Positions 1,750-55,246 of a DNA stretch of 64,000 bases are shown piece by piece (the stretch's first letter is position 1; every line of letters starts with the position of its first letter). The translations under genes and the position numbers were made by a program. The stretch comes from Dimargaris cristalligena. Taxonomy: Eukaryota. The DNA lies in the NCBI GenBank assembly GCA_003614675.1, contig ML002228.1, forward strand, positions 1-64,000, in the 5' to 3' direction. The notes beneath the pieces are model-generated. The model was not told the DNA's origin, ran no database searches, and saw only the letters and a program-made list of their open reading frames with translations.

Positions 1750-3422
1750 ATGAAGTCTTTTATCGCCTTAATATATCCTGCCGTAGCGGTGCTAGTTTCG
1801 GCAGTATGTGGTGCTAATATACCCATCGATAGTTTGTTAAATCAGGCCTCGGGTTTACCTTATGAGTTACTAATCGAAATTGGTAGCCACATGTCCCCTG
1901 GCGAATTTGTCCGACGAATGAATTATCTGGTCCACGATCCGGTCCAGCGGTACATTTTTACCAGAGACCAGGTAAGTATGATTTATACCCCGCCCAATCA
2001 ACCGGCATCGTAATACTAAGGTATACTTTAGCATCGGTAGATGACCTTGTGTACGGCTAGGCACCTGTCATTAGCTACTATACACATCATTATTGGCATC
2101 TTATCAGCCTACTGTTATACTTGAGCATATCCCGATCACACTAAATAACTAAAAATTAATACTAATAAGACTACTATAAAATCACGCATATATTCGCTTC
2201 ATTCAGGTTAACTTACAATTGAAAGCCGTTGCCCGCAAACTCCAAGCTCTGGCGGATGCCTCCGGGGACATGAAGGACTTTGAGGCCAATATTCAGCAAT
2301 TCACAGGTGACTTCTATAGTTTGGCCAAACTCGAATCCTGGTCAGTTTTCACGAATCAACTCCTGAATCGTTATTCGGGGTGGGAGTCTAGCTACCATCG
2401 TAGTCTGAACCAGTTGGGACACCCCCCCCCCTTCTTGGCAAATGTGGCACTTGGATTACCCGGAGTTCGTCAGTAATAATCGAGCGAACCCCCTCCTGAA
2501 AAAGGAGAACTGGCGGCTGCTAAGGTTGGAGTCCCTATCCTCCTTTGCCCTAACCCAACACTTTCCACTGGCCTATTACGCAAATCGGACGACTCTGGTG
2601 GTCTTGGAACGAATCCACCGAGTGGTGTCTTCCCACTTTCCCAATAGTCGAGACCCCCCCACAACCATCAAGCACCACTTCGGCGCCAACCTCGAGATTA
2701 CCAGTCACCAAATGGAGAGCCTCGAACTTACTCGATCAGTCCTACTGCCCACGCTCGAGATGGGATTCTTACTTTCCGTTTGGCGCCTTTATCGGCGCGA
2801 AGAAATCGACCACTTGGTGCAATTCGTTCAATTGGTGTGGAATGACACTAAGGTCGAAAAAAATGGTGTACAGCATATTGGCCACTTTCTGGGCAACGTC
2901 ATCTTTTTTCTATTGACCCTCGCCGCGATTGATCAGAAGCAGTCGGTTTTGACAGCCCTGGAACCCTTCTTTTCCACTGCCGCCATTTACGCCGATGATA
3001 GGCGGCGGTTTGCCCAGGTCTTTAGTGTTCACCAGCGAAAGCTAGTGGAATGCCTCAATAATCGGGGACTGACGAATGCCGCCCGGTTCCTCCATCAGCG
3101 ATGGGGACTACAGATCAACCTAGACCGCACCTGGACGGATGCCAGTTGTTGGAAATCTCTTTTTGGGAGTACTTGGTTGGCATTCACTTCGACCGGCGAG
3201 CTGGGTGTTGGTGTACCGGTTAATTTACTTGACCCGGCCCCGAGGCTGGACCAGTTCCTACCCAGTGAGTACCAAACCACTTTCCCCTCCTTTCGGTCCA
3301 TTGACCGAATCCAAAATAAGCTTTTTCAAGACGACCACCCTGTTTTCGCCTCGGCCTGGTTTACTTTGAAGCACGCAGTTGACGTTGTACGAGGGCTGAG
3401 AAGATGGGGGTATGAAGATTAA
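1750..3422 (+). CDS. Secreted F-box-like protein, family member 1 (exons 1750-1971, 2207-3422; apparent +1 frameshift in the C10 run at 2422-2431, so possibly a pseudogene or a sequencing error)
   Basis: Hydrophobic signal peptide MKSFIALIYPAVAVLVSAVCG and F-box-like SGLPYELLIEIGSHMSPGEF. GTAAGT donor at 1972 and CAG acceptor at 2206 (phase 0) join to ORF 2219. ORF 2442-3422 aligns by eye with ORF 34243-35499. Confidence 0.7.
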
Positions 3423-3706
3423 TCGTCATTTGGGGGGGGGGCTAAGTTCAACTTATTTTTCTAATCCGACCCAACCTAAAATAGTCAATTATCTTGCACT
3501 CTATTCCGACAAACCTCTGATTATGCCGTCTATTGAACTTTAAAATGATAAAATGGTCTGGTCCAATCAACTTTATTGGTAATTAGGACACAGATATATC
3601 TAAAATATGAGTCACACGATTTCCATAATTTACAAACCCCAGTCAAAACCGAGAAATATTTAAATATAGGAGAATGTCAACGTAGACACTAAGGCCCACG
3701 GGTGGA

Positions 3707-6700
3707 TTATGGTGTAGGTCGATTGGGGGTCATTCCCCTAGTTTCGTTTGGAACATAAATGGGGGAGTTACTGTAATCCTTAAATCGAATGAGAATGATA
3801 ACCACAATAATGGGCACGGCAATAACTGAAACCAGGGCCATCCGCTTGTTCCACTGGCGCAACCGACGCTGCCGAAGGCTCTCCCGGGTGATACGCACCT
3901 CATCCCGCGGTGGTGGAATGCACCATGCCGCGATCCACCAACAAGGTGGGCACAGGAAACCCATGATAAAAAATACCTTGTAGATGTACACGTGGGCCCC
4001 CGGGGGAAAGATGACCTCCAAGACGTCGGCTAATCTATCCCAATTTAAGCGGCGGCGGGAGAATAGGCCCCGGGTCACCTTTTCATTCCACGTTTGGGGG
4101 GAGCCGATAGAGGAGTCCGGGGGCCCATTGCCAGCGGGCTGGGCGGTACCGCGGCTTCCGAAATAGGATGGTCTGGGGGTACTATCGGCCCGTGCGTCTG
4201 AGGATTTCTCAAAAGAACCAGCCGCGGCTGACTGGGGGGTTGGGCCAGTCGCGGGCCGATCGATACTGACGGACGGCCCTGACTCGGGAATGGGCGGCAT
4301 GGGTACAATAACATGCGCGTTGGATCGCCACGGTCGGCCGAATAAAGGCAAGCGATCCACCAACGAGGTGCGGGCGGTGCTAGTGGACTTCGCACCGTGG
4401 TGGAATTCCTTGATAGAGGGATGGGTGCCGGGCTTCTTCAGAATCGAGGTGGGCGGGGGTGGTTGGAGCTGGGGTGGGTTAAGCGGTCGACGGTGACCCT
4501 GGCTTAGGGTTTCGGTATAAATATCGGTGCCCTGGGGGAGACCTGCGCCAAAGGCGGTTTTGTTGAAATGAGTCCGGGACAGGCGCCGCCCGCTGAGGAA
4601 GGGTGGGGGTGGGTAGGATGGGAAAAAAAAGTGCTCTTGGCTGCTGCCGCTTTCAGAGGTGTCGCAGGAGGACGTTATGCGACGGAGTTCGGAGGGTAGG
4701 AATCGGAGCCGCTCGGTGGGTTTGCGGGTAGGGCGGGCTGCACCGGGTGGGGACAAGGAGAGGTTTGGTGATACTTGGCTCTGGCGGGAGCCGCGTCGGG
4801 GGTAGGGCATGCTATACCTTGAGTGAGACGAAGTCAGTCGGTGGTTGTCTTCCCGACTTAACGGTGAGAGACGACTTGTGCCGACTGGATGGTGAAGGGG
4901 GCGTACCCCCGAACTTCCGGTGGTTAATCCGCTGGTATAACTATCGCGGACGGAGCGACGGCGACGACCAGATTGAGGGTAAGTGGGTGCTGGAACGTTG
5001 GGGTAGCGGTGGGCACTGTCAGCGCTAGTGATCGTATGCGGGGACTGGGTACTTCCGTGGGGAACGAGGGGTGAGATTGGCTGCGACCGACGACCTGGGT
5101 CGGGTAATGGGCTTCCTAGGTGGGTCACATCGATTGGGGTATCCGCGCCAGTGGAGGATAGGTATCCCTTTTTATTGGAGTGAATAGGTACGGATTGGCG
5201 CCTCGACTGAACCAGGTAGCCCGGGTGAAGCAGGTCGGATTCCCGGCGAGCCTGAAACTGCCGGAGCCCCGTCACGTCGGAGATGAAGCGGGGCCGGGAG
5301 AAGCGACCACCCGTCGCCATTGGACCACTGGCCATAGGGGCCGAATCCTCGCTAATATTATAGATGATGGGACTTACTGCCGATCCGGTGTGCGAGGTGG
5401 TACGATTTCTAGATTCCGATACCATGCTATTAGGCTTCCGAGCGGGGGAGGTATACTCCGACGGGCTCAGTAACTCACCCCTAGGGGATGTGACCCCGGG
5501 CACCTCATCTTCAGAGATACCGTATAGAAATACGGGCGGTAAAGTCGGGTGGCGATTGACTTGATCAGAAGCTAGTTGTGGGGCTTCCGTTGACTGGGGT
5601 ACCGCGTGGCAAATCCGCTCCTCCAAGGCCGACAGAGCGCCCATACTTGACTGGAGATTAAGACTGTCGTAGGATTCCTCCGCCGGTCGGCCCGACCAAG
5701 TCACTGTAATGCGTTTGGTTAATTTATGCCAGAGGGGCTTGCTGGGATTTTTAGAGGTGGGCTGGGGATTAAATTCACTAAAGCTGGCGAGACTCTCAGG
5801 GGTCCGAGGGCTCACCATGGCACTATCGACCTGGGGGAGGTTAGTTAAAACCAATGGGGCTAGTGGGCGGACCGTGGGTTTAGGGGGTGGTACCGGTCGG
5901 CTTAACACTACTGGAGCTTTTTGGTGTAGGTCGTGCCCTGGTGTGCGGGATAACCGGGGGATAAGTTTCGGTGGAAAATAGCTCGCCACCGGGGTGGCGG
6001 TCGACCGAGCCGTTGGAATAGGGGTTAGGCGTGGGCTTGTTGAACCAGATGGTTGGATACCGGATGTAATAGTAGTGAGGGGGCGTAGCTTACTTGGCCC
6101 GGGTGGTTTGTAGGGACGTGTTGTCAACACGCTGGATTTTGGTCGAGGCTTGTTAGCCCGCTTTCCAAAGGGAAATGTGAGAGTCCAGTAGCTGGGTGCA
6201 TTAGCAACCACGGCAGGACCGGCCATTGCGGGTAGTTGCCGGCGTGGTCCATGTGAGGCGGCCTCTTTTACTTGACTATTCTGTGTTAAGCTTGGAGGAA
6301 TTATAGAGCTAGGTTCGGGACTCTGGGAGGAGGGACGGGTAGACGAAACCGGGGGTAGATGGGCTAGCAGCGGGGAGGGTCCACATTCACTCGAATCCAA
6401 GTGGGCCAAGGGCTCAAGGCGCGAGGTCCCTGACTCGACGGCCGGACCGTGGCTATTGACCCAATTTTGACAATAAAGATTGCGGATACGCACCTCTTCG
6501 GAAAAGTCGCCGTCGGTTGGCAATAGAGGCACATGCAGCTGCAGGCTTTGGCCGTAGAGTGATTGGCCCCGCCGATCAGTCGATTGGTCTCCGCTATGCG
6601 ATAGCGCGGGAGTTGACGCCAACTCTGGCGTAGCGCCTTCATGACTACCGTTACCTTCCGTTCCGCAGATGTCACTAAAATTAAGCGGGGCTTGCTCCTC

Positions 6701-7042
6701 TGTTCCATCGGATGATTCCGATGGGTTAGCTGAGGTCTCCAGAATTTTGGGGGCAGTGTGTGGGTGAATGGGACTTACATCGGGGTCTTTAACGGGTGAT
6801 GGGGTCAGACGTGAGACGGGAGTTACCGATCGGTCCGGCTCGTTAATGGGGTCAGCGGCCGATGCGGGTGCTGATATGTCAGCTGGAAAGGGATACACCA
6901 CCCCCGGGCGTAGCGGGCGAATCTCCCGAGATACCGGTAGAGACTCATAAGTGGATTCACTTGGGTCAGAGATTGACCTGGAGTGATGGGGGTAGTCACA
7001 AGTCGGACCAACTAGGCCATTTGATGGGTTGCTGCCTTCCAT
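3707..7042 (-). CDS. Large Ser/Pro-rich, probably disordered protein with two C-terminal transmembrane segments (1111 aa), function unknown
   Basis: Uninterrupted 1111-aa ORF with a low-complexity S/P/R body. The C-terminus has hydrophobic VFFIMGFLCPPCWWIAAWC and MALVSVIAVPIIVVIILIRF separated by a basic linker. Confidence 0.85.
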   Translation of the reverse strand: MEGSNPSNGLVGPTCDYPHHSRSISDPSESTYESLPVSREIRPLRPGVVYPFPADISAPASAADPINEPDRSVTPVSRLTPSPVKDPDVSPIHPHTAPKILETSANPSESSDGTEEQAPLNFSDICGTEGNGSHEGATPELASTPALSHSGDQSTDRRGQSLYGQSLQLHVPLLPTDGDFSEEVRIRNLYCQNWVNSHGPAVESGTSRLEPLAHLDSSECGPSPLLAHLPPVSSTRPSSQSPEPSSIIPPSLTQNSQVKEAASHGPRRQLPAMAGPAVVANAPSYWTLTFPFGKRANKPRPKSSVLTTRPYKPPGPSKLRPLTTITSGIQPSGSTSPRLTPIPTARSTATPVASYFPPKLIPRLSRTPGHDLHQKAPVVLSRPVPPPKPTVRPLAPLVLTNLPQVDSAMVSPRTPESLASFSEFNPQPTSKNPSKPLWHKLTKRITVTWSGRPAEESYDSLNLQSSMGALSALEERICHAVPQSTEAPQLASDQVNRHPTLPPVFLYGISEDEVPGVTSPRGELLSPSEYTSPARKPNSMVSESRNRTTSHTGSAVSPIIYNISEDSAPMASGPMATGGRFSRPRFISDVTGLRQFQARRESDLLHPGYLVQSRRQSVPIHSNKKGYLSSTGADTPIDVTHLGSPLPDPGRRSQPISPLVPHGSTQSPHTITSADSAHRYPNVPAPTYPQSGRRRRSVRDSYTSGLTTGSSGVRPLHHPVGTSRLSPLSREDNHRLTSSHSRYSMPYPRRGSRQSQVSPNLSLSPPGAARPTRKPTERLRFLPSELRRITSSCDTSESGSSQEHFFFPSYPPPPFLSGRRLSRTHFNKTAFGAGLPQGTDIYTETLSQGHRRPLNPPQLQPPPPTSILKKPGTHPSIKEFHHGAKSTSTARTSLVDRLPLFGRPWRSNAHVIVPMPPIPESGPSVSIDRPATGPTPQSAAAGSFEKSSDARADSTPRPSYFGSRGTAQPAGNGPPDSSIGSPQTWNEKVTRGLFSRRRLNWDRLADVLEVIFPPGAHVYIYKVFFIMGFLCPPCWWIAAWCIPPPRDEVRITRESLRQRRLRQWNKRMALVSVIAVPIIVVIILIRFKDYSNSPIYVPNETRGMTPNRPTP

Positions 7043-10000
7043 GGTTCCGAAATTAAATAGTAAATAAGTAAAAATATCGCCTGTAACTGGAGTATTTTAT
7101 ACTCATTAGAACGATGCTTTAGAGAGCCAATGCCTGTAGAAGTTATGCAAAGCCAAGCGACAGGGTATTGGGTATCGTCTGACTTGGTGACGGCTGAACG
7201 GAATAAGAGTCAAATAGGTATATAAGGAGGAAGAAGTACGGCCAATTGTAGGTTAGCTTGTAAGTATACAAAAGATAATAAACCAGTCGAGTCCATGATA
7301 TACAGTCACAGTGGTATAATGGCTAGACTACAAACGCAGAGCAGAGAATAGTCATAACAAGCCGACTAGATCCCCAGGAGTAGCAGTGGGCTGGAATAGG
7401 CGGTGAAGAGTAATGTAAACGAAAGAGTCACTCACCAGATAAAAAAATTGGGGCGGATATACCTTGGTAGATGGCTAGATTCCGGTTACCTGGCACGAGT
7501 TGAGTGCGGTGATGCTATTCAGTGGTGGGGCCTCCCCTAGCTAATGAATAGCAATGCGGCTAAGCAAAGACCTTCGTTCAGGAGATGGGGATGACTGCCA
7601 GCCATGATAGAATCAAAAAAATACATACAAACAAGCCAGGGGTATGGGGAAATATAACCAAAATGAGTGGGGGTATACAGCAAGTGGCGGGAATAATCGT
7701 GCCGAAGAAACCGGATACCAACGGTGTATCTGTGGGATGAAACGCAGGCTTGTTAATGCACTGACGCCGTCGCCACCTCAGCGGACCTGCCTTTAAAGCT
7801 GGCCAACGTTTAAAGCCCAGTTAATATCCAATGAGACAATGCCTATTAATAGTTTTTGGTGTACATGGTAACCAACACTCATGGGAAAGCTAACTTACCG
7901 GATTGTGGGTACGGCGTTGATGTCCGTGGGAGGATGGTGGGTATATCTTTGTTCAAGATAACATACAAAACTCGGTAGCCAGTGTGACCTGTAGGTGTCT
8001 GTGTGTTTCCAATCAGTTTTTTTTAATACAGGGGTATTATGGAAAATGGGCGCCAATGTGGAGTTGGATATATAGAAACGCCGGATAATGCTGACTCAAA
8101 ATATGAACACCATCAAGCAGGCTAGTCAGGATAGAATATTAAGACAACGAAGAGTTTAAACACTGAGGGCTGTATGGTAATGCAGAGAGAAAAAATAAGC
8201 ATGAAAGAGAGTAGGGATACAGATATTTACAGGAACATAAACTATATAGGCCAATTTTTATGAGATAATAATGTAGAGGCAAAAGATGCCAGTCCGAAGG
8301 TCAGGGAAGCGAATGGTTTTTATTGAAATAGTAAATGACAAGCGGCTATTAGGCGTTGGGGTAAGGGAGGGAGGGGAGGAGGATGCCAAAATCACAGAAG
8401 GAAAACTACGAACAATTGAAGGAGACTGGCCCCACCGAAACAATTGGGTTGTCGGGTAAAAGTCATAGTATGGCTCCTACACATGGGGCAGTGGGGAAGC
8501 CGATGAACCAACGGTATATGGACACAGGTCCTGTTCTGTACCACGCTATGTAACGGGGTTTTGCTGTTTCCGTCTACTGCTCTCTATCTAGGCCAAAGAC
8601 CGGCGGCTCGTATGTTAGTCTGTGGATGTGGGTTTTACGGTGCCACTTAGGGATGCCCCTTTAAGGGTCGCGCCGTCAGTCCTTCGGGCATTCATACTCT
8701 CAGGGTTCGTTCCATCACCTTCCCCTTCCTCCTCCCTCTCTCGTTTCTCATTATAGAGCTAACGTGGAAATGATGTTACTGTTTTTACGGATATTCCCAT
8801 GTCGTTTTGGTCTCAGTCGCCATATCGGTTTATAAATGGGTATGTAAATACTGAGGGCCACTAACCCAATTTTACTGACAATACTTGTTAACAATATAGC
8901 TGGTTGGATATCCCAATAAAAATATTGGATAGTTGGTCTGAGTGTATACACCATTTGAGCAGTAAAGTACATGGTAGGTGGCCAAGCAATCCCTTCCTCT
9001 ACCTCTCCAGCTTCAACACCCCCAATAACGGAAACCTCAGTTCGCCTGTTCCCTTTTCGGTCGCACATTTAAAGTTCCGAGACTAGACTGTGCACTGTCG
9101 TTGCGTAGCCGAGTGGCTGAGAGTCGGTGGACAATGTAGAATTCCCAAACCAGCCAGCTACCTAATTTAGTTTTTGGGTGTAAGTCTCGAGTCTTTTTTT
9201 TTCTAGTCAATACCTCTCCTAAAAATGTAATTTATTGTTAGCATGAAAGTGTCCCCGGCGGACCACCCATAGACAAAGGTTGTAGAGTTATACACTTCAA
9301 CAATTTCTGACCCGGAATAAGAATATAGTCCAAGGACTATATAATGGTGAACATCAATTAGGCCATTTGATAACATTGGTCATTTTTAGGACTAAATATG
9401 TCTGTTTTAAAGCGCAAGTCCGGTAGCTTCAGCTGTGAGCGACATTGGTCATCTCCGTGGTGTTTTTATTACGAAGTAAATTTCCAGCTACGCGTCCAAT
9501 CTACCTGTAGTTATTGAATGGGCACCCGCTACATCTCTGGACTACAATGCCGAAATGGCAATTAATCTAGATACCATTAGAAATATATGGCCTATTACCA
9601 CCATAAACTCTCTCCGCTAATGTCCTTTCCTAGTGGGCTCTCTAGCGCCAAGGCATAGCTACGCACGGAAATTGCGTTAAATCCGTGTAAACTTATAAGG
9701 CTGGGGTGAGCCCTTCCTCCTCATTACGAATCTTATACAGAAGTATAGGGGTTTACGTTGATGACTTGCCAAGCCCATCACAGATTCTCCAGCCCTCTAC
9801 CCCACCCCTTCCAGCTGCTAAAGTATTTCCCCCAAATTGTAACCATGTGCCCTTTGGGAGTCGACACTCTTTATATCAGTTACCTACCGTCGTAAGTAAC
9901 TTAGTGGGGACGGTTAACCACGGAATAGTCGCCCCATCTGGGCCCCCGATAGTATTGTCGTCTCCATAACCACACCCATTTTTAAAATCTCTACAGCCTT

Positions 10001-10587: not shown

Positions 10588-13500
10588 TTAAGTGGTGGGC
10601 TCACAGCCCCAGCCTCCACCGCCAGGTGTCAAAATGCGCAAGCGATCGTGGGGAGCCATAAGACAAGTGTTTTTTCCACCCAAGGCCAGTCGACGGTAGC
10701 GCCGGCCTTGACTACCACTTACCCCTTCCTCTTTCCGCTCGTGACCTTCCCCCCTTTCCACCACCCGCAACCAGTGATTTTCGCCGCGTTGCCCCGGCTC
10801 CCCCCCAGCCAGGCCGTAGGGTTGAAACACGCGCCGTTCGGATAAAATAGATACTTGGATGGGTTCGAGGAATTCCAAGTCACGGATCAGGCCGTTGCCT
10901 CCCCGGTAGAGACCCCGCCCCCCTGAGTCGGGCCGGATACTGAATTCGTGGAGTATGACCGGGTAGCGTCTTTCGAGGATTTCGGGGTCGGTGATGCGGG
11001 TATTGGTCATGTGCGTATGGACCCCATCGGTGCCTGCCCACGAAGGGCCGGCTCCACTCCCACCGGCGATGGTCTCATAGTAACCCCAGCCGTCCCCATC
11101 ACTCTCCGCCTCCGCCTCCTCCTCCTGCTGCTGCTGCTGCTGTTGGTGATTATTGCCGGGATCATGGGCCTCGGAAGGTTTGGCCAGGTCTGGTTGAGCG
11201 GGGGATGAGGATTTGGACGGGCCCTTCCCGAACGTCAGGTTATTCATATCGCCCTGGGATGCCGCACAGGCCCGGAAGGCCTTAAATATCACGTCCACGA
11301 TGCGTTGGGAAGTCTGGACGTTACCCCCAACTACTGCAGCCGTGGCCGAAGGGCACAGGAGCGATCCTTCAGGTAGGATAATCCGGACAGGGTTTAGACA
11401 CCCCTGGTTTAGGGGAATATCCGATTCCACCATGCACCGCAGGCAGTAAATTACGGCGCTGTAGGTGATGGACGACGGCGCATTGAGATTGCCGTAGACT
11501 TCGGGGGAGGTACCCGTAAAGTCGAACACGGCCTCACCATCCCGACTTTCCCCGCCCTGGGGATCGATGGTCACCCGGAGGGAAATTCGGGCCCCATTAT
11601 CGAGAAAGTCCTCCGCAATCAGGGCTTGGCCACCGAATTTCTGGAAGGTGGTCCGCAGTAGTTGGCGGATAGCCGATTCGGCGTTGTCCTGTATGAAATG
11701 CATATAGGCGTGCACCGTGGGTCGGCCGTACTCAATGACCAACCGGCGGAGGAGGTCGATGCCCCGTTTGTTGGCCGCTATTTGGGCCTTGAGGTCGGAT
11801 ACATTATCCCGCAGACACCGAGTGCCACTACACTTGGGGTACTGGGCCGGTTTGACTACCAGAGCGTCGTTCAATTCGGCCAATTGGAATACCCCCCGTT
11901 CCACAATTTTAAAGGCGGTAAAGGCCGCCCCTTCCTCGTAAAGTTCCCGCGACGTGGGGGGCATGGAACCAGGCAGAATACCGCCAATATCAGCGTGGTG
12001 TCCCCGGGAGGCCACAAAAAACACGATGCGGTCGTCCTGGAATACCGGTGTAATGACCGTCATGTCGGGCAGGTGGGATCCGCCCGCCTGGGGATGGTTA
12101 GTCAACAGCACATCTCCGGCATGTAAACCATCGGGCCCCCAGTGCTTAATTTGGAACTGCACGGCGTGGCCAATGGAACCCAGGTGAACGGGGATATGGG
12201 GGGCGTTGGCGACCAGACTCCCATCCGGGCCAAAAATAGCGCAGGAGAAATCGAGCCGCTCCTTGATATTGGTGGAAATGGCCGTTTTTTGCAACGTTCG
12301 GCCCATTTGTTCGGCGATACTCATGAACCGGTGTGAGAAAACGGAGAGTTGGATGGGATCACAGACTATAGGTTGGTCGTCCTGTTTCTCAGGTGGACTA
12401 GTGGGTGAATTAGTGGGGTCCTCGGCCACTCGCTGAAGAACCAAGTGCTGCGAAGTCACCACCGTTTCCCAGCCCGGCTCCACAATAACGGTGAACGTGG
12501 GGTCAATCACCACCGCTGGCCCTGTAAACACGTCACCCGGTTCCAGGCGATCGACCAAAAGCACCGGGGTCTGTGGATCCCGGCCAGTGGCAAAGTACAC
12601 CGAAGTATACCGGTCGATTTTCTCATTTGTGACATCGGCCAAGCAATGGATTCGTCGACGGGGTAATGTGGCCAAGTCGACGTAGGGCGTGGCACTCTGG
12701 TCCGTGGCGGAGGTACTGCGGCCCACCCCGTGGATACGGATATCGTTGACCAGAATATCCCGATCCGGAAAGTGAAACCCGAACTCCTGCTGGTAGTTAC
12801 TCTCAAAAGGGGTGACGAAGTCCCAAGCGGCCCGTGGGGTATCCGACGACCCCTGTACATCGGCGGGTGAGGTCATCATGTCCCCGTCGGTACCTTGGTA
12901 GTGCAGATTGAGATAGGGGACCACTGAGATACGGTCATCAGGGAACCCCTGTCGCCTTAACTCCGCCCGGCAGGTTTCCTGGAGGTCGGTGATGCGTTCC
13001 ACCAGCTCCTGGCTCAGACCGTCTCGCTGGAGCATGAGGGCACAGGGCTGTTGGGTTTCGTGGACTACGTCGGCCAAGTTGAGACCGTAGGCCGACAGGA
13101 TAGAAGCGTGACGGTGTACGAGTACGCGCCGGATGCTCAGCAAATCAGCGATGGCACAGGCATGCTGACCCCCCGCGCCGCCAAAGCAGGTTAAAATATG
13201 TCGCGAGGAATCGTACCCACGGGCTTCAGTAAGGGCCCGGATGGGTCGGCTCATGGCCTCGTTGGCCACTTTAATGAATCCGTAGGCCACCTCATCGACG
13301 GATTGCGGCGACGTAGTGGTACCGGATTCGCCCCCATTGGTGTCCATATCGGCCAGGAGTTTTTCGAATAACTGGACGGACACTTCGTGATCGAGGGGCT
13401 CATCCTCCTGGGGACCGAATATTTTGGGAAAATAGTCGCTGACCAACCGACCTAGCACCAGGTTAGCATCGGTTACCGTCAAGGGTCCGGATTTACGGTA

Positions 13501-15359
13501 ACAGGCCGGCCCCGGGTGGGCTCCCGCGCTCTCGGGGCCAACCACAAAGAGACCATTTCGGAAGAACAGGCGGGAACCCCCACCCGCTGCGACGGTATGT
13601 ATATCCAGCTGACGGGCCTGAATCGTGATCCCGGCCGTGGTTGTCTCAAATACGTGGGAATACGAGCCGTCGTAGCGAGACACATCGGTACTAGTCCCAC
13701 CCATGTCAAAGCCAACCACGGGGGTCGGGTCGTCCGCATTCCAGGATGTGAGAGCACAACCCACCACCCCGCCGGCCGGTCCGGACAGAATGGCCCGGAA
13801 TCCCGTGAATTGATCGACGGGAGTAAGCCCGCCATCGGATTGCATAAATTGCACCGAAACCCGGTCCAGTAGATGCTGGTCGAACCCCTGGATAAAACCC
13901 TGTAGGTAGCGCTGGATCCCGGGGGTGAGGTACGCATCCGCGCAGGCCGAGTTACCCCGCGGAACGGCCTTGATCATGGGCATCAGTTCATGACTGAGGG
14001 TAATTTGGGTGAATCCCACGTTAGCCGCCAATTGGCCTAGAGTACGTTCGTGATCCGGGTAGGTATAGGAATGTAGGAAGCAGACGGCAATGCTGCGGTA
14101 GCCCGCGTCGAACAGGTCAGTCAGTTGGACGCGCGCGGCATCTATATCTATTTAATATAACAAAGACAGCGGATAGCAATACACGCCATGGAGATAACCC
14201 TGGTTGAGGGGTGCAAGTTAGTATGGTGAAACCTAAGTCGATGGCAATGACCAGGATATTTTAAACACTCGAACCAGGCGCATTCAGCCGTAAATGTTAT
14301 CAATGTGCAGATATTCAGGTAGGCAATGCAGGCTTGTAAATAGCCTAGATAACTCCATAGGGTGTCAAACAGCGAAGATAGCTGGTGGCACTTACCTAGA
14401 GTCGTCAGTACTTGGACGAGCTCCCCGGAGATACCATAAACGCAGTCCTTGGGCTTGTTGGCGGATCGTACGGCTGGCTTGGTGCTGCCCGAGGTATGTC
14501 CCAAGAGGGTCACACTAAGGGTTCATTGCAAAACACACGGTCCATATATAAGTCAACAGCCGTGTGAATAATCCCAGCCAAGAATCGTGAATTGAATAAA
14601 GGAAATGCACTGTCAGTTTTGTCCCTTTGTTAAAGTATGTGAAAATTGGAACATTTAGGGACGTTTGGATGGGCTCAGTAAGTGCATGGATTTACAAGCA
14701 ACAAGTCACATGGGTCGTCCTTACCGTTCATTGATTTCCACCACTGTTTCGTACAAAACGCCGGGTCGCTGAATAGCCAACTCAAAAATCTTAGGGCGGG
14801 CCTGGTTCCCAATGACCAGCAGGTCCTAGATAAGACAGGATCAGAGGCAAGTGGCAGCATGGTGGGGAGGTGGCAAATCCAAATAACACATGGCTGGAGT
14901 TAAACATCATGCAACGAGTCATACAGTTGGCATGTTAGGGACTAAAACAGAGGTCACTGGGTCAAATATGGCCCAGTCCCCTCAGAGCAGTCCAGAAGTC
15001 CACAGACAGGCTGGTGGGTATTGTGGTTTTACCTTAAAACCGCGGGTAATGAGCAAGGCACACCGTTCCCCACGCCGCTCCAGTAAGGCATTGGTGGCCA
15101 CGGTCGTGCCCATTCGAATGGAACGAATGAGGGAGGTGTCCAGAACCCGGTGGCGCGGGAACGGCTCGCCCGTTACGATTTCGAGGATACGCCGGATGCC
15201 TTCCCGAGGCGCATCGTCGTAGTTGAGTGGGTCCTGACTGAGTAGCTTAATGACGAGGCTCGGGGTAGCTCCCGTGTCGACCTCCTCGTAGCGGGCGTAA
15301 CAGTCGGTGAAGGTGCCCCCACGGTCAATGCAAATGTCAAGATTCCGAACCTGGGCCAT
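10588..15359 (-). CDS. OXP1: ATP-dependent 5-oxoprolinase (hydantoinase A+B fusion), 4 exons: 15359-15033, 14825-14725, 14514-14396, 14147-10588 (~1368 aa)
   Basis: Motifs [81 protein letters not shown] and [12 protein letters not shown] junctions keep the frame. Confidence 0.96.
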
Positions 15360-36696: not shown

Positions 36697-37404
36697 TTAC
36701 AGGATAGACATGAAAGTAACTATAAAACCAACCACCCATGAATACACCCAAACCCCCCGACTCCCACCATCACCTCCCCGGTGTACGATGGACCCGGCCG
36801 AGATAACTTCGTCGTCCTCGGTACCACTTGGGTAGGCCAAGGACACAGTACCGGTAGCCCGAACTCCGGTTTGGGTACCACTCGGAAAAATCGACTGGGG
36901 AAAATCATCATCCGGGGTGGCAGTGTCAGTATTAGCAGTGGAGGAGGTAGCGGTAGCACTTTGGGTGATTCGACTGATATCCTCCATGATCTGACTAAGG
37001 GACTCACTATCCGTCGGAACCCCCCCGTTCCGTACGGTGGCGATACATTCCACCAAACAGATACTGGCGGGAGTGGCGGTATAATTCGTGGACGGGTAGG
37101 CATTAATCGTGGCCCCGCACTGGATGGTGCAGTCGAGATAATCATCCTCGGAAATTTGGAGGCAGTTATCGACGCAGTCGTCTTCGGCTCCGGTTTGGCA
37201 AATGGTGTCAAAGAGACATTGGAACTCCGTGGGTAGGGAACCGGCTGAATTGGCGACACCTTTTACCGCGGCGAGGGAGAGTCGGTTGGTTTGGGCCAGG
37301 GTGGGGACAAGGGTTATGAGAAGGAGACTAAGGAGGAGGAACGACAACGACAACGGGACCCGCTGCCACCGTCGAGTACTGTGGTCGGACGGGCCTAGTT
37401 GCAT
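36697..37404 (-). CDS. Secreted Cys-rich cell-surface protein, probably GPI-anchored or C-terminally membrane-anchored (235 aa)
   Basis: N-terminal hydrophobic LSLSFLLLSLLLITLVPTLA, an 8-Cys domain with CxxxC pairs, an S/T-rich stalk and a hydrophobic C-terminus VWVYSWVVGFIVTFMSIL. Confidence 0.8.
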   Translation of the reverse strand: MQLGPSDHSTRRWQRVPLSLSFLLLSLLLITLVPTLAQTNRLSLAAVKGVANSAGSLPTEFQCLFDTICQTGAEDDCVDNCLQISEDDYLDCTIQCGATINAYPSTNYTATPASICLVECIATVRNGGVPTDSESLSQIMEDISRITQSATATSSTANTDTATPDDDFPQSIFPSGTQTGVRATGTVSLAYPSGTEDDEVISAGSIVHRGGDGGSRGVWVYSWVVGFIVTFMSIL

Positions 37405-42457: not shown

Positions 42458-45400
42458 TTAAGGTGATTCAGTGGCCTGGCGTTTAGCTACCGGGGAGATG
42501 CTCGAGCGCTCAATCTTGATGGCCGCCCGGGGGTCCAGGTCTTTGACCACGGGCAAAGGGGAGGGGCCATTGCGCGGTTCCGCCTCTTGGTCATCGACTT
42601 CATCCGCCTTTCGCTTGATTCCCCCCGCTGCCCGCTCAACTGGGCTGGACGAGTGGTAGGGAGATTGCAGTGGAGACGACGGGAGGGCCGGCAATGACTC
42701 CGAAGAAGCCATGGATGATCCCCGAAGGATTTCATTGTCAGATAACGGCTCTGTTTCCTCCTTCTTCACATCGATGCTCTCACCTAGGCCCTCGTCTCCC
42801 GAATCACCACCGGAGGCCTGGGCCCGGCGCAGCATATCCGTCCGACAAGTGGCATGATAGATGGAGTCGCCCTCTACAAGAACGGCGTTACGGTATACCC
42901 AGTCTTCCTCATCCTCGGACCATACGCCGGTTAATTTTTCGTTACATACGGGGCAGATGGACGAATGCGGTTCGGAGGGTACGGTGATCACCATAGCACG
43001 GAGGAGAGCATCATCGCTGTGTTCATGGTCGCCAGCCTCACCATCGGCCTCTGGTTTGGAGGAGCCGTTCGAAGCCCCTGCATCCTCGCCAGAGCGGTCA
43101 CCACCGTCATGGCCCGCGGTAGCTTGCTCGAAAATCTTGGCTGGGGTAAGGTCTTCATTATCAGTTTGGCGAGAGTCAATCCAGTCCTGGAGTTCAGATT
43201 GAATCATCATAACGTGTAAACGAATTGAAGAAATTGCATAGGAATAGCAATGAAAAACAATAATAATAGGAAGTGTGTTGGTTAGTTTCGCTGTAGTCAT
43301 ATTATACCATCCAGTGAAAAGCCCCAGGACGACTTACTTAGCGAAAGGGGGGTATAAAGTCATTTCCACGAAAAGAAATGGGGATATCAACAGTATCTGA
43401 CGCGTTTCTATTCCCTTCGCCCACCAATACGCATGTTTTATTTGATGACTCGGCCAGGTAATTAACAATCCAGCCAGTATGTTGACGATATAAAAAAGTT
43501 GGGATACTAAGAATTGCTATATATATAATCGAAGGAGTATCGAAAACGAAGACCGGTGCTTACCTTCTCGGAAACGAACCAGCCCCGGGGCTGGGCCTGA
43601 CGCACTTTGTCCTTAAAACGGCTGTTGGAGCGGAAATGCCAGTCAAGATGCTTATCCAATTGTTTCTTCCCGATGCTGGTCTCAGGATAACGGGCGCCGC
43701 ATTGCTTACACTTAAGGGGAATGGCGTCGTAGAGGGTCGCTACTAGTCCGGGGCGTTTTCTAGGTGAGAGGGAAAAGGGGACAAGACAAAAACATGGGAT
43801 ATCCGGCAAACCCGATACATAAATTAACAAACGAAGTCCATTGGAATATATATGAGCGAGATGTACAAGGTTGGAGTAGCCCCCATAACTATGGTGGCGG
43901 CAACTAACCCCCTTTTACGGGGAAAATTCCGAGAAGGGGGGCTTGCACAAGGAATCTGGGTATAGTACTTACTTCTGAAGATCTTCGTTATTAAGCTGAA
44001 TGGGGGATACTTTATTAACAGACGGGCGAGTACCATTAGTCGCACCTCGAAGGGGAAGATTAGCGCCAGGGAAGGGCGCCACCGTGGGCATAGAAGTGGG
44101 CTGGAGGCCTGGCCCCCCTCCCCCGCTTAAATTGGCGGAGGGGTAGACCGACTGGTTGGAGAGAGACGGTGCCATATTGACCGGCTGCAGGGCGGGGATG
44201 GAACCAATGGATGAGCCAATGGACGCCAGGGTGCTCAAAAGGGCCGCATTGGGACCCAGGAGCTGCTGAAGTAGTGCGGAGGCGTCGGTGGGCACGGCCG
44301 GGACGGGGTTGCCTACAGGGAAGGTGGGCAGCAGTGGGGCGGCGGTAGTAGTGGGTAAGGGGATTTGGGGAGTCAAGCTACGCAAGGCATTGAGGATGGC
44401 CATGGGGTCGGTCGATGGCACCGAGGTGGCAGGGGAAGGAGCCATGCCGGGGGGAGAAACCGGGTAATAACCAGGCTTAGCGGAATGTGTGGTATACTGT
44501 GCGTAGGGGGGCTGCTGGTGCGGGGGTTGGGATTGGGGCTGCGGGTGCCGCTGGCCGGCCGTCTGATGAATATGTTTATCTAGGGCAGCGATAACCGAAA
44601 CCGGGAAAAGGGGTCTGGGTTTGTTCTCCTTCCAAATAGCCAATACACGGCGAAAGTTATGGCGATCGTCCGGGGATATTTTATTATAGGCACTTGTAAA
44701 GGCAGGTACAATCCGTTTGGCAAATTCGGGAATATAGGCATGGCCGACATTTTTGCAAATGGAGTCAATCAGAAATAACACGGGTACTTTATAGCGGGGC
44801 GGGGCCTACCGTGGTTTATAGTGCACGCAGGGGACAAATTCCAGCAGCAAGTAGATTTAGTAGTAATAAGCACAGAGATTATGTTGGTTCATTGGGATGC
44901 ATGACATAACCAAGACAGCGATGTCCGAAGGCACAGAGCACATTTACCAAAACATGGCCACATTATAGTGATACAGCGAAAATCAAGAAATACAATTTCA
45001 TAATAGTAGTTAGTTAATTTACTCAGAGATTGAGGGACAATTGGACCGTGCTGGCATTTTAGTGTCTTTACCACCATCGAGTCGGGGTCATTAGTGGTGG
45101 TTATATTGTGTATTACAATAAGCTTATTTTTTAAACTTGAAACACAAAATAGGGGAGAAGGGAGGAAATGGCACAACTATCACCCGATTTGGTAGTATGC
45201 TTAATGAAAAAATGGGGGAAGAAGGCGAAATAAGGCCCCTGTGTCATACAAAGAGTTTCGAGACGGTATTTGACTCGTAGACTCCATCCATGGCAGCAAA
45301 TTGGAATATAAAAGAAGGCGAACGATACAAAGTATAAACTGCGACGGCAAGTAAGGGGCACCTCCAAATGACATCTCCACGCACTTCGGCAAACCTAATA

Positions 45401-46569: not shown

Positions 46570-46650
46570 GGGCTGGGCGGGTATACAATAGGGGCACAAT
46601 GGAAGCCGGCGAAAATAGAGGTATGGGGAGAATAGAACAGGGTACTTGGA

Positions 46651-46653
<3 letters not shown>

Positions 46654-46681
<28 letters not shown>
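46654..46681. repeat. (TA)n microsatellite ~85 bp upstream of the PCF11 start codon
   Basis: Direct reading. Similar tracts occur at ~25178, ~26319, ~28685 and ~61862. Confidence 0.9.
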
Positions 46682-48068: not shown

Positions 48069-48518
48069 AAGGGCAGCGTTGCGTTGAAATGGCACAAAGG
48101 AGATTGTAGGTTTGGCTATTTCTATGAAGAGAAGGCAGAGTGTATAATAAGGGGAGAGGGAGCCCGGTACAGTTAGGCAATATCGAGTAGAGAAGGCAGG
48201 TAAAGTCCCCAAAAAACAACAATCGTTGAGAGGTAAGAGTAAAGGCATGGTAAACAATCGCGGGGGGTCAATTTGCCACACCCTGTATGTCGTATATGCC
48301 AAACCCTGGGATTTTCCCTCAGCTAGAGTAGCCCAAGCCCGTAAAGACAGGCAACCTAGTGGGAGTCGGCTTAACTCATTTGGTCAGGCTTGCTTGTTTC
48401 ATAACCCTCATAATAGTAATAATACCGTCGCTTCCATTTACGCTCGTGAAGCTTTTCTCCCCTTGGTAGGTTGAGCACCCGGCCCTGTTTGACCGTCTCC
48501 GCCAGCGTTGTAGCAGAC

Positions 48519-49350
48519 ATGAGCAGCAGTGCGGGCAACCATGCCATTGGCGTCAATTCCTGTCAGTACGGAAACCCTGTCCTAGAACACATTCGTAATG
48601 TGCCCTGGGAGTACCGCGACATTGTCCCCGATTTCACCGTGGGCCAGACCAGTGGGGTGCTGTTTCTCAGCCTCAAGTACCACCGCCTCCACCCCGAGTA
48701 CATTGGCCTACGGGTGGATCAACTGCGGGACAACTTTGTGCTGCGGATCCTTTTGGTGTTGATTGATAATGACGATCATCAATCGGCCCTCCGTGAACTT
48801 ACGAAGCTTGGTACGCAGGCCCGACTCACCGTCATACTCGCCTGGAGCTCCGAGGAAGCCGGCCGGTACATTGAGACGTTCAAGGCCCTGGAACACAAGC
48901 CCCCGGATATGATCCGTGAAAAGGTCGAGGACGCTTATTTGCCCCGGCTCACCGACTGTTTGACCTCGGTGCGGCCCGTTAATAAAACCGATGTGGTGAC
49001 CCTGGTCTCCAATTTCGGATCCTTCAGTAATATGGCCAAGGCGTCCGCCTCTGACTTGGCCATGTGCCCTGGGTTCGGTGAGCAAAAGGAAAGTCGATTG
49101 GATATCATGCACATGCATTCTCTCCGTTGACACCGTGCTGTAAAATGGTCGGATGCTATTCCAACCGCTGCGCCTTTTATAAATATTATTACTATCGACC
49201 TTTAAATATTAATCCCCGTACTGCCACCTATATACAATTGTATGTTCTATCTTTTCCTGCATCTCTATCCATTCTATACAGGCACGTCGACTATACGAGG
49301 CCTTTCACCAGCCCTTCGTTTCAGGTACCAAATACGATGATTCGACCTAG
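48519..49350 (+). CDS. ERCC1: DNA repair endonuclease subunit ERCC1/Rad10/Swi10 (exons 48519-49088, 49282-49350; start uncertain)
   Basis: QYGNPVLEHIRNVPWEY, LFLSLKYHRLHPEYI, LAWSSEEAGRYIETFK, LTSVRPVNKTD and the HhH motif CPGFGEQK-ARRLYEAFHQPF across the intron. Confidence 0.93.
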
Positions 49351-51493: not shown

Positions 51494-54027
51494 AGTGTAT
51501 ACCGAATGTATGTATATCTATCTATATATATAAAACGACCCGGTTGGTCGGTTGTTGTAGACAACGTTTAAGGTGTTGCTAAAAGGGTGCAGGAGACGTC
51601 AGGGGTTGGTCAATTATGGATAGATACGGGAGTTGACCATGGGTAAGTCAGTGCTGCAGTTGGTTTCGGTGGTAAGCTCGGGTGTGTGTCGGCTGCAGAG
51701 AAGAAAAGTGCAGGTAGCAGCAGCAGTAATTGCTTTAGGTACCGAGAAGATTGGCTCATTCCAAGGACGGCATGCGCCTCAAGAGGAAGAGATTCCGGGC
51801 AGGCCCGGGGTCATGCATGCCCCTTACCCCGCGACGTCCTTGCTAATCGTATACCGCCTCTCATTCCCTCATTCCCCCGAGGTATAACCTAGACTTTACC
51901 TACCTTAAAAGCGTAGCCGAGTATTGTGTGGTAGTGGATATAGGTAACAAAACAATGTGGTTCGTCTTACTAAAAGGGCAACCCGATGTTGGAAATCCTG
52001 AGATATTTAAATGGCGTTGAGAGTGCCACCAGTTTAGTTACATAGCAGTATGGGCCAATGAGCGCTGATATTGCGCACTCATTTTTAAAAGCATTGGGTG
52101 TGTGCTCTTTATTGTGTGGGGCATATTGAGTCCCAAAAATAGCGTAAGGCCTTCCTCCTTCTCTCCCTTTCTTCCATCTTTCATGGCCTCCTTATTATAC
52201 ACTGCCTCCAACTTCTTCACTGAGCAAACCACCGTGGCACAGCAAGTTGCTCTAACTCGTGAGATTCGCCACTCTCCAATGATACCAAACTTTATCGTAG
52301 GGCTGAGCTTATTAGGTGGACGTGGGATTGGCCAACCAAACGCAGGCGGCTACATAATGATAGGTGTTGATGCCCCTAATAAATAGAAGTGTAAACGGCG
52401 GCGTAGTAAATAAAACAACAGACACTGGAAATGATTCTTCCAGGTATTTCTTTATCAAATACTTTCCAGTTCTGCAGGCATGGTGCAAATTCGGATCACT
52501 AAACCGATTAGGAGCAGCCCGCTGGGAGAAGAGGGGGGTGCTCTTGCTGCACAGACCCGACGCTCTCGGGTCCATGCAAGTAAATCTTTCTTCTTATTAC
52601 GAGAAACGCCTTGTCAGGAAGGAGCTCTTAGGCCGGTGGTAGCCCCCCCTCCTTTACCACTTCCCGAGCAATTTCCTAGACAGCGAAGAGGAGATGAAAG
52701 ATGCGGGGTATAATTTGCCAGCCTTGTTTACCCCTTCCCTTCGAGGCTTGTACTACAACTATACCACCTACCCCACACAGGGGCTTACTTTAACGTAACT
52801 CAATCGCCTCTCGCCTTTGTAATTTTTTCCTTTCTATTTCCAAGACCCCACATACTGCCCATTAAATAGCGCCCTTCGCATTTGTGTGTTGTTTTGGCCA
52901 GACCCCTGTAAATGGATGAACTATGTAGTCGGCGTAGTCAAACAGTTCGCTCCCGATCATATGGGTAAGCCGTAAGACCTAAACAAATATGCGTCGGATT
53001 TTGGGTTTCATGCGACCCGCCTTTTTTTATTTTGCATCAGATCGGCTTTGATTTAGCCACTAGAATATGTCGGTAAATAGGCCGGCCGCTCATGTGGTAG
53101 CTAAAAACACTCTTAATTAGGTCTTTATGTGACTCCCACCTTGCTTAGATTTTAGTATATTGAATGTAACCATATCTTATATACCCTGCAGCCATCCGCC
53201 AGTTTCCGGCTTAGATCATATTCCCATGACTTTAGCCTAAAATACCTTTGGTGCATTCGGCAGCTTTACACAGGCGGACTTGGGGCAAATGAAATGCAAT
53301 AATCGGGTTACCCAAGCAGGGTTAAGAACCTCCGCAGGTACAGTCAAAATGTAAGTAGTGTGGGAAGCGCCGGATTCCGCCCAAAAGTGGTCTTGGCCCA
53401 CTTTATGCACCCGCCCTAAGGATAAATTCCCCACATGATGTCAACGAGGCCCCCCAAATTGGCCTAAAGAAACTTTAAAGAAATACCACTGAAAAATGGT
53501 GACAATGTTATTGAGACGGTGGGGCCTTGGGGTCTGATCAGCTGCAATTCCTCTCCGTGACACCAGGGAGTCCGCCCTCTACACTCATCGGTGAATACAA
53601 GTATAACCAAACTACCATTTCAGGCTTGCCTTGTTCTGGCCCGACTCCCCAGAACCCAACAGCTTTCTAGACAGCTGTCAGCTGGTTGGGTAGACGAAAC
53701 CGATTAGATTGAATCCACCCGCCGGCTAGTTTAGCGCACCCTTAGGTAGTAGTAAAATGGAGTCAACGATAAAATCACCTACTGCCTTTATACCCCTCCT
53801 GTGCATTTTATATTACTGACCTTGGGACTCGTTGAAGTACCATTTACCCGGTGATGTAAAGCATTATATCCAAACCGTCACGCTCACAACCGTTGACCCA
53901 ATTAATATGCCACAGCCACTCATTTAAAAAAACACATTTTATTTAGTACATCATCGAAAAATAGAAAGCGGAGAAATCTTATTCGGTACTTATAATCGGC
54001 ACTATAGCAGCCCCGCCATCATGGGGG

Positions 54028-55246
54028 TTACTGAATTGGCACATACAAATTGTCGATAAAGGGAGTGACAGGCTCTGTATCAAACAACATTAATGCGAGG
54101 GACTCTTCTTTGGTCATCGCATAATGTACATAGGACAATCCGGTGGGTATCTTATTGGGGATTAGACCGCATTTGAACCCCATCTGCAAGTTAATACAGG
54201 CGGTGCTAACCTCCACCGCCTGTTTCCCTTCCACTTTGGAGGCCAGAAACTCGGCAATTTGGGGTCGGTCTAGATTCAGGGCCCAATAGTACAGGGCGGC
54301 CAGGTTCATTTTAAGTTTCCAGTTTTCCAACAGGCGGCTTTCTATGGCATGGGGGTCCCGCACCACGAGGAAACGGACAATATCGAGTTGGTTGTGAACA
54401 ATAGCCACCCGGGCGAGATCGTGCGCTACGCGAACGGAAGTGTCCATCGTCAAGAGGGGTTGGATGCGTTTGTGCAGTTTATCAAAAGTCATTTTACTGA
54501 TCCGATCGGTAATGAGATGAACGAGGGGGGTGCACAAGGTCGTGAATACGGCGGGTTGGCTAGCCTTTAAATCAGCCACAGTCAAGGTGTTGTAACGAGC
54601 CATCGTTGGCTGGAGTTTAGCCCAAGCCACGGGGCCGTTCTGGAGGAGGAGTTGGCGGGTCGTGTAAGCCGTAAAGATCCGCTGGGTGGCCGAGTCGTCG
54701 AGATTTCCGTCGTTATCAACGTGTCTCCTCAGCTAGGGTTCAAGGACACGCGATTTAGGTCATTAAATCAATGAAATAAAGTAGTGTAAATGGGCAGTTT
54801 CGGACTAATATAATGGATTGAGGGATATATACCTGAACCATCCGGTTTATCTGCCGATTGTCTATCAGTAAAAAATAGATGAATCTCCGGGCGAGTGAAG
54901 TGATTCCCTCCTCTAGATATAGATAGCTACTTACATCATAGGGGTTATATTTTTGCGCTATTTCTTTCATGCCTGGGATCCGCAAAACTCGAATGAACTC
55001 ATCCGGGTGAAGCTTGCCCAGAATCGAGAACATTATTTCTAAAGGTAGTTGGCCACGCGGAATAATGTTTTGGGTAGTCTTATTTACTTTGTTCGCTTGG
55101 GGCATTGGTTTCTTTATAGTACCAGGACTAGGTTCCGAATTAAGGTTTTGATGGTTGGGAACGGGGACGGCCGAGGAAGCTGTGAAGAGCTGGACCAGGG
55201 CTAGAAGTCCGAGTCCCAGAGTGAGGTTCTGAATTGGGCGAACCAT
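54028..55246 (-). CDS. Secreted F-box-like / ankyrin-like protein, family member 3 (exons 55246-54935, 54732-54028; ~338 aa)
   Basis: Signal peptide MVRPIQNLTLGLGLLALVQLFTASSA-VP and F-box-like GQLPLEIMFSILGKLHPDEFIRVLRI. GTAAGT donor at 54934 and TAG acceptor at 54733 (phase 0). Ankyrin-like LARVAIVHNQLDIVRFLV and LYYWALNLDRPQIAEFLASK. Confidence 0.8.

Follow-up and report, generated by a model that had tools for sequence, protein, structure and literature searches.

Gene structures in the window

Three genes built on one plan lie in the DNA analysed here, a stretch of 64 kb (positions 1 to 64,000 of contig ML002228.1 from the fungus Dimargaris cristalligena; 'the window' below): genes 1 and 2 on the forward strand and gene 3 on the reverse strand. 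In each of them a first exon, coding for a hydrophobic leader (a putative signal peptide) and an LPxE(L/I)xxxI motif, is followed by a phase-0 GTAAGT..AG intron and then by a helical body; the introns are AT-rich (GC 0.34-0.39 vs 0.45-0.52 in the exons). An earlier note, written from the letters of the sequence, took the three genes for a dispersed family of proteins with a signal peptide and an F-box-like motif, candidate secreted effectors that would hijack a host SCF (Skp1-Cul1-F-box) ubiquitin ligase. Its coordinates and its phase-0 GTAAGT introns of 235, 223 and 202 bp proved to be exact; the same junctions are used by two public protein models, P0001 (gene 2, 520 aa, with identical exon 1/intron junctions) and P0006 (gene 3, 338 aa = 104 + 234). 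The elements of the three genes are as follows.

1750-1971, + strand: gene 1 exon 1; ATG at 1750, 74 codons; leader MKSFIALIYPAVAVLVSAVCGA; LPYELLIEI from 1855
1972-2206, + strand: gene 1 intron; 235 nt, GTAAGT..CAG, phase 0, GC 0.37; junction also in public models P0004 and P0005
2207-3422, + strand: gene 1 exon 2; helical body, family member; stop at 3420-3422; frame changes at the C-run
2422-2431, + strand: C10 homopolymer in gene 1; site of the frame break in this assembly
33696-34016, + strand: gene 2 exon 1; ATG at 33696, 107 codons; leader MKSQRVSLIGLVVLGLAAQLVISA, S/T/N-rich linker, F-box-like segment
33879-33995, + strand: gene 2 Pfam F-box stretch; residues 62-100
34017-34239, + strand: gene 2 intron; 223 nt, GTAAGT..TAG, phase 0, GC 0.34; junction as in P0001
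34240-35499, + strand: gene 2 exon 2; 419 codons + stop; all-helical body
54935-55246, - strand: gene 3 exon 1; ATG at 55246, 104 codons; leader MVRPIQNLTLGLGLLALVQLFTASSA, linker, F-box-like segment LPLEIMFSILGKLHPDEFIRVL
55051-54983, - strand: gene 3 Pfam F-box stretch; residues 66-88
54733-54934, - strand: gene 3 intron; 202 nt, GTAAGT..TAG, phase 0, GC 0.39
54028-54732, - strand: gene 3 exon 2; 234 codons + stop; helical body outside the family of genes 1 and 2

Since leader and F-box-like segment sit within one exon in genes 1, 2 and 3, no splice is required to join them; open reading frames (ORFs) of 234-419 codons stay open in these genes. A scan of the six frames of the 64 kb with the regular expression LP.E[ILVM][ILVMF]..[ILVM] gave four matches. 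Three of them are genes 1-3, each following a hydrophobic N-terminus, and the fourth is antisense, at 26989; the motifs that the earlier note had quoted for the three genes were all found in this way.

Public proteins identical or near-identical to those of the window are all named Dimargaris cristalligena and belong to two annotation sets. The P0001 model splices out 18 nt of gene 2 exon 2 (34350-34367, coding for GELFFT), while the paralog P0003 retains the homologous residues as coding; this mini-intron is, therefore, probably an annotation artefact. The second annotation of gene 2, P0002 (290 aa), jumps from the end of exon 1 to body residue ∼340 and is 230 residues short. For gene 3 the two annotations give an identical protein, labelled 'F-box domain-containing' by one source.

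It had been proposed that the ORF fragments splice into one architecture. Such is the case for genes 2 and 3; in gene 1 the proposal passed over a frame break at the C-run 2422-2431, where ORFs 2180-2476 and 2409-3422 lie in different frames. The contigs of three runs from one study (X1-X3), possibly the source of the window DNA, have the same C-run as the window. In the contig of an independent run from another study (X5) there is one letter fewer at 2422, and the frame of gene 1 is open, as in P0004, the second public annotation of gene 1, which continues through the C-run (..GHPPPSWQMWHLDYPEF..). With the break seen in the window and in X1-X3, and the frame open in X5 and P0004, gene 1 is either a strain-specific pseudogene or the site of a homopolymer error. 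A G-run at 3431, just past the gene 1 stop, has one additional G in two runs and two in one; homopolymer lengths are thus unstable in these data, which bears on the break at the C-run. Between sequencing runs, gene 1 exon 1 has 0 differences in 222 nt vs 4 in ∼460 nt of non-coding sequence, and three of the four coding differences in the gene alter the protein.

A family of D. cristalligena proteins

Pairwise comparison of genes 2 and 1 by BLASTP was marginal when taken alone, with an expectation value (E) of 0.001 (24% over 92 aa) and a collinear match at E 0.039. A search profile made of the gene 2 protein and P0003 (a 40%-identical paralog) was then run against a database of 1,835,955,588 representative proteins; of the 32 proteins that it retrieved at E<=1e-3, 22 reached E<=1e-10 and 4 reached E<=1e-30. 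When the 29 further representatives were all looked up by exact match, every name was D. cristalligena, in most cases with one member per annotation set. A hidden Markov model (HMM) of the family, built from 31 sequences, aligned with the gene 1 protein (P0004) along two collinear stretches and scored 43.2 bits (E 1e-12), none of 1000 shuffles exceeding 4.4 bits. The aligned positions are exactly those of the blocks of genes 1 and 2 that the earlier note had matched by eye; the similarity of the three blocks reflects real homology.

By these scores genes 1 and 2 are homologous, and the family that includes them counts ∼32 loci (gene 1 and the 31 representatives), far more than the three genes of the earlier note, which had suggested counting paralogs with an HMM. 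The paralogs were counted from protein databases; ∼32 is a lower bound, since behind every representative there is a cluster at 50%, and a number of entries are incomplete. As far as the databases show, the family is restricted to D. cristalligena. Within the window, a tblastn search with four proteins found nothing besides the three genes.

Most paralogs have only ∼16-29% identity to gene 2 (one closer paralog has 44%), and they are dispersed over many contigs; many of the models are partial. The consensus of the 32-row alignment reads M..(hydrophobic)..P...LPxE....I...........L...S..., followed by conserved body motifs: NxxxPxFQxxAWRFxNP, LPLLALVD, MARLATTxRF, RLAIxLAA, GLxxGAxFLxxxWxC, LxLTDxNQMG and DxGPW. 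The corresponding motifs of gene 2 are DPxxQxxAWxxxNP, PLLALVD, ARLAxTxRF, RxAIxLA, GxxxxAxFL, LTNDNQMGV and DLGPW. The overall pattern fits a lineage-specific, effector-like expansion, as judged from sequence comparison. The strain-level frame break of gene 1 and the protein-altering differences between runs would also suit effector-like evolution.

In one annotation of the paralog P0052, located on another contig, leader and body are fused to a C-terminal cytochrome P450 fragment (PF00067, E 1.8e-7); this fusion is likely a merged gene model.

The F-box-like segment

The strongest Pfam match among the window genes is that of gene 2, with exon 1 matching PF12937 at E 0.0011 (19.1 bits) and PF00646 at E 0.015, and the isolated segment matching PF12937 at E 2.6e-4 (21.1 bits). 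Exon 1 of gene 3 matches PF12937 at E 0.047 (13.9 bits); for gene 1 there was no Pfam match at E<=10. The F-box-like motif that the earlier note had described in all three proteins is matched by Pfam models, below the curated cut-off, in genes 2 and 3 and is not matched in gene 1. One paralog, P0054, passes the Pfam cut-off for PF00646 (21.9 >= 20.5 bits). When 20 segments of the family were scanned singly (E<=10), six matched PF00646 (best E 1.8e-5), six PF12937 and two PF15966; four unrelated Pfam families matched one segment of the 20 each, at E >= 0.074. Nine of the proteins are named 'F-box domain-containing' by their sources, and the pattern LPxE(L/I)..I...L..(T/S)SK is kept across paralogs that are otherwise ∼20% identical.

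Comparisons with predicted structures point in the same direction. For residues 57-125 of gene 2 the nearest clusters by ESM Atlas features are F-box clusters (0.91, 0.89 and 0.87), the look-alikes of this segment being mostly F-box clusters of Ascomycota. By Atlas structure, all 10 of the 10 listed matches are F-box clusters or align to F-box parts, with a template modelling (TM) score by query of 0.53-0.65; here both sides are predicted models, and TM >0.5 means little for short stretches. The feature scores likewise call for caution where the query is short. In the AlphaFold2 (AF2) model of gene 2 computed with the 32-row alignment, short helices are predicted at residues 67-77, 82-89 and 91-100, at a predicted local distance difference test score (pLDDT) of 75-87. 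F-box proteins were not listed in PDB searches with the whole gene 2 model, in which the helical body dominates the match.

We read the F-box of the family as apparently genuine but degenerate: well supported in gene 2, weakly in gene 3, and in gene 1 by the motif alone.

The leader

Leaders were scored by a heuristic that requires an uncharged stretch near the Met start with a best 10-residue Kyte-Doolittle mean >=2.0; it is crude and is not a trained predictor. It was positive for genes 1-3 and for 19 of the 32 family loci in at least one model. An LPxE-type motif within the first 260 residues was likewise found in 19 of 32 loci, and leader and motif occurred together in 13; most loci negative for leader or motif are represented by truncated or partial models. 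The leaders have K/R ahead of the hydrophobic core and small residues behind it (CGA, ISA, SSA). In the paralogs a recurrent ..AAPGLSM.. or ..SAP.. comes right after the core, and a disordered S/T/N/P-rich linker is seen. N-terminal K/R and small residues past the core fit a cleaved signal, which we regard, by this reasoning, as putative.

The helical body

The AF2 model of gene 2 with the 32-row alignment has a pLDDT of 76.5 and a predicted TM score of 0.77, and its body is all-alpha. A model from a two-row alignment (pLDDT 42.6) was discarded. A Pfam scan of the 32 family bodies found no family, save the P450 fragment in the fused model and chance matches. No leucine-rich repeat (LRR) or ankyrin Pfam model matched any of the 32 family members at E<=0.1 or any of the three window bodies at E<=10; no signal of LRR, WD40, Kelch or ankyrin repeats was seen in the family body.

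Searches for a known fold gave generic matches. The whole-family profile retrieved two chance-level rows among PDB sequences (E 0.39 and 0.72). With the 520-residue model as query, in which single domains may have been missed, Foldseek found 0 PDB matches at E<=0.001 (the best, at E 0.21, were 14-3-3 chains with TM 0.11-0.19). In a VIA-align comparison of this model with 48,161 chains, Z was 7.0 at most (Tel1/ATM, Get4, KLC1-TPR), with 88 chains at Z>=5; Z values up to 7.0 are within the range of unrelated helical proteins, and these are generic helical-repeat matches only. Near-invariant columns of the body are P212, L289, F301, L332, A334, A396 and L399 (gene 2 numbering).

On this reading each protein of the family, those of genes 1 and 2 included, would begin with a cleavable-looking leader, carry a degenerate F-box 10-90 residues downstream of it and continue into a conserved all-alpha domain of ∼400 residues with no known family or fold.

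Gene 3, a separate gene

The earlier note had placed all three genes in one family. This holds for genes 1 and 2; gene 3 falls outside. Its protein (P0006) scored below shuffles against the family HMM (domain scores -2.7 and -4.1), and hhalign gave a probability of 1.2% for its relationship to the family. BLASTP found no significant match between genes 1 and 3, and between genes 2 and 3 it found E 0.017 over 24 residues only. To the extent that such comparisons can tell, gene 3 stands apart from the family, of which it is no detectable member, and combines a first exon of the same type (leader and F-box-like segment) with an unrelated body. The first exon with leader and F-box, bounded by a phase-0 intron, may have served as a module for attachment to unrelated bodies, as in gene 3.

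By Atlas features gene 3 resembles ankyrin clusters (0.94, 135 shared features). We set aside the reading of gene 3 as an ankyrin protein: the Atlas features were the only lead, there was no Pfam match, and a PDB sequence search gave one chance row at E 1.5.

Neighbouring genes

The ordinary genes named among the neighbours are the following.

10591-14151, - strand: oxoprolinase
24864-28252, + strand: metallophosphatase, split
42461-44805, - strand: Pcf11/CID
48450-49127: Rad10
58481-59263: cyclophilin

Genes 1-3, with GC 0.45-0.52, are below these named neighbours (0.53-0.59). The metallophosphatase domain is spread over two adjoining long ORFs, with profile positions 2-49 in the one and 51-189 in the other; an intron presumably divides a single gene here. 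Several large ORFs of the window have no Pfam family; among them, 3710-7096 (- strand) and 20095-21951 (+ strand) are open frames of 1129 and 619 codons without a Pfam family at E<=0.001. Scanning the 64-kb window for motifs revealed no Skp1.

Some other ORFs have leader-like N-termini. A 148-aa ORF at 61936-62379 (+ strand) starts with a classical-looking leader, MLPNLLLATLAVVVLSACSTFA, and has a sub-threshold cerato-platanin/barwin match (PF07249, E 3.4e-4, 21.2 bits vs a cut-off of 24.4); it probably codes for a small secreted cerato-platanin-like protein. Close to gene 2, ORFs of 458 aa (30647-32020, + strand) and 235 aa (36700-37404, - strand) have leader-like N-termini and no Pfam family, and possibly code for further secreted orphan proteins.

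Proposed secreted effectors and rival explanations

Starting from the gene structures, the family membership, the restriction to one species, the F-box likeness and the helical fold prediction, we consider it plausible, at a rough probability of 0.45, that the proteins are secreted F-box effectors acting in the host hypha via the host's Skp1-Cul1; the secretion, the delivery, the Skp1 binding and the targets are what we infer. The earlier note, in favouring effectors, had guessed at a haustorial parasite. The guess was right: the source is D. cristalligena, and the Dimargaritales, the order of Dimargaris, are described as haustorial mycoparasites, with co-culture with Cokeromyces (PMC3734964).

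We consider the following mechanism, in four steps, the most probable. The leader would route the protein co-translationally into the secretory pathway, so that the F-box would be kept from the parasite's own Skp1; the protein would then be released at the haustorial interface and would enter the host hypha. Once inside, the F-box would dock on Skp1-Cul1, which is conserved in the host, and host proteins would be recruited for ubiquitination by the helical domain; alternatively, the protein could simply tie up host Skp1. A more specific version, in which ∼30 Sec-secreted F-box proteins pass via haustoria into hyphae of Mucorales and form hybrid ligases with host Skp1-Cul1, the helical domain of each paralog choosing other host proteins for destruction, is offered as a tentative scenario, less probable than the general one.

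Several observations weigh against an effector role by way of an F-box. The Pfam F-box cut-offs are reached by none of genes 1-3; gene 2 itself has 19.1-21.1 bits vs 24.3 for PF12937 and 15.7-17.8 vs 20.5 for PF00646, and in whole proteins at E<=0.1 PF12937 is found in 2 of 32 and PF00646 in 1 of 32. A profile of the 20 segments, searched against PDB sequences, did find FBXW8 at its F-box, at E 0.36, ranked below an unrelated deacetylase at E 0.059. With the F-box HMM of the family, the first exon of gene 1 scored 3.1 bits and came eighth among the 833 window ORFs; neither this exon nor that of gene 3 was singled out. The signal peptides claimed for all three genes are matched by the crude leader heuristic, which is positive as well in 19 of the 109 window ATG-ORFs >=60 aa, genes 1-3 included. 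In P0002 the gene 2 leader carries S7N and G15D, with G15D inside the leader. Both public models of gene 1, P0004 and P0005, begin at an internal Met, residue 47, and thereby have neither the leader nor the LPYELL motif; the longer reading is favoured, since the ORF is open from the ATG at 1750 and the architecture is family-wide. Finally, the most conserved columns of the family are in the body, not in the F-box, which points to a conserved core function there and speaks against a simple picture of constant adaptor and variable binder.

Several of these observations fit the most probable of the alternatives, which we place below the effector reading: a secreted, wall or secretory-pathway family, in which the 'F-box' would be a degenerate three-helix cap without Skp1 binding and the conserved helical domain would work, by binding or catalysis, outside the cytosol, whether in the wall of the parasite itself or where haustorium and host meet. 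Neither the window genes nor most paralogs have an F-box signal above threshold, the PDB profile search of the segments was not significant, and the near-invariant columns, along with PLLALVD, ARLATTxRF, LTDxNQMG and DxGPW, suggest that the core function is in the body. Against it, F-box families are the only ones that Pfam matched repeatedly (6, 6 and 2 of 20 segments vs 1 each for the four unrelated families), P0054 passes a curated cut-off, look-alikes by feature and by structure are uniformly F-box, and LPxE(L/I)..I...L..(T/S)SK persists across paralogs of ∼20% identity.

The proteins could also be endogenous F-box proteins of the parasite's own SCF, held by an uncleaved N-terminal anchor on an organelle, with F-box and body facing the cytosol. 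Some members do have rather long hydrophobic stretches (∼17-19 uncharged residues in gene 2), and the gene 2 leader weakly matches a transmembrane-segment model (PF12911, E 0.038). The charges, however, are placed the other way round. By the positive-inside rule a positively charged flank stays on the cytosolic side; in the leaders the positive charges come before the core, and the linker after it is neutral or acidic, which would put the F-box in the lumen or outside rather than in the cytosol. Along with small residues after the core, as at cleavage sites, and a body for which no relative was found in any other organism, unusual for housekeeping SCF receptors, this makes an endogenous anchored protein improbable.

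As to decaying or mis-modelled genes, in which the leader and F-box exon would lie outside functional transcripts, or single copies, such as gene 1 of this strain, would be pseudogenes of a family that is disappearing, the frame break of gene 1 shared by the window and the X1-X3 contigs, the internal starts of both its public models, the residues missing from P0002 and the many partial paralog models are outweighed by the open frame of gene 1 in an independent run and in the second annotation, the identical gene 3 proteins of both annotations, the open ORFs of 234-419 codons, the joint recurrence of leader and motif in at least 13 loci and the unchanged exon 1 of gene 1 next to 4 non-coding differences, and we find this explanation very improbable.

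Comparison with known systems

Mimicry of the host SCF ligase by F-box proteins is established for bacteria, viruses and one insect. The insect is the Hessian fly (Mayetiola destructor), whose SSGP-71 proteins carry a secretion signal.

SSGP-71, with an F-box and LRRs, interacts with host Skp and is thought to mimic host F-box proteins (PMC4617103). It is the closest to the D. cristalligena family in logic: an expanded, lineage-specific family of a eukaryotic parasite with an N-terminal F-box. It differs in that an insect acts on a plant rather than a fungus on a fungus, in its LRR body (vs an all-helical body without LRR or other Pfam match), and in that Skp binding has been demonstrated for SSGP-71 and is putative in the D. 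cristalligena family.

Legionella AnkB/LegU1, Ralstonia RipG/GALA and Agrobacterium VirF are translocated F-box effectors using host Skp1-Cul1 (PMC2790608, PMC12602876), and RipG7 is treated among F-box effectors (PMC4617103). These, too, are F-box proteins that a pathogen introduces into its eukaryotic host. Delivery, however, is by type III or type IV secretion without a Sec-type leader, and the bodies are ankyrin or LRR; database-wide and PDB profile searches found no sequence relationship of the D. cristalligena family to effectors of the AnkB/GALA/VirF type. For Mycetohabitans, bacterial partners of Mucoromycota that live with or in their hyphae, candidate type III F-box-like effectors against the fungal host have been proposed (PMC7482071). 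There the likeness is in the proposed action on a fungal host; the effectors are bacterial, depend on type III secretion and number only two candidates, and we compared them by description only.

Ordinary fungal F-box proteins (PF00646/PF12937) resemble the D. cristalligena family in the pattern LPxE(L/I)..I and in three short helices, which in the family are predicted for gene 2. They are cytosolic or nuclear, have no N-terminal leader and usually end in WD40, LRR or other known C-terminal domains; the D. cristalligena family is set apart by its leader, its novel body and, for the window genes, scores below the Pfam cut-off. By analogy, the family would work like the insect and bacterial effectors above while being a member of none of their families, with no LRR or ankyrin signal seen and no sequence relationship found.

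Among the papers listed by our search of the literature none describes such secreted effectors with an F-box for a fungus, though supplementary secretome tables might list these proteins uncommented; the papers that speak of F-box effectors are all bacterial or generic, and no paper combining Dimargaris and F-box was found. In the accessible part of a comparative paper on Kickxellomycotina there is no mention of such proteins (PMC9866270), and support for F-box domains in eukaryotic pathogenicity is, according to another comparative paper, lacking (PMC8146833). The belief expressed in the earlier note, that no such family has been characterised in fungi, agrees with what we found in the literature, but the note overlooked the eukaryotic precedent of SSGP-71. 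The family proteins themselves are already public, as hypothetical or 'F-box domain-containing' proteins.

Implications for mycoparasitism

To our knowledge, hardly anything has been learnt about the means by which haustorial mycoparasites gain control of hosts among the early-diverging fungi. In this setting parasite and host are both fungi with a conserved Skp1, and the leader would keep a Skp1-binding module away from the cytosol of its producer. The helical domain, which belongs to no known family, may represent a new type of module, either enzymatic or for substrate recognition. The strategy as such, mimicry of the host SCF, is already known; the pairing of kingdoms and the body domain are plausibly new. 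The ∼32 candidates form a concrete, testable set, and if they act as proposed, they would represent the first family of SCF-mimicking effectors in a fungus, and the first that one fungus uses against another.

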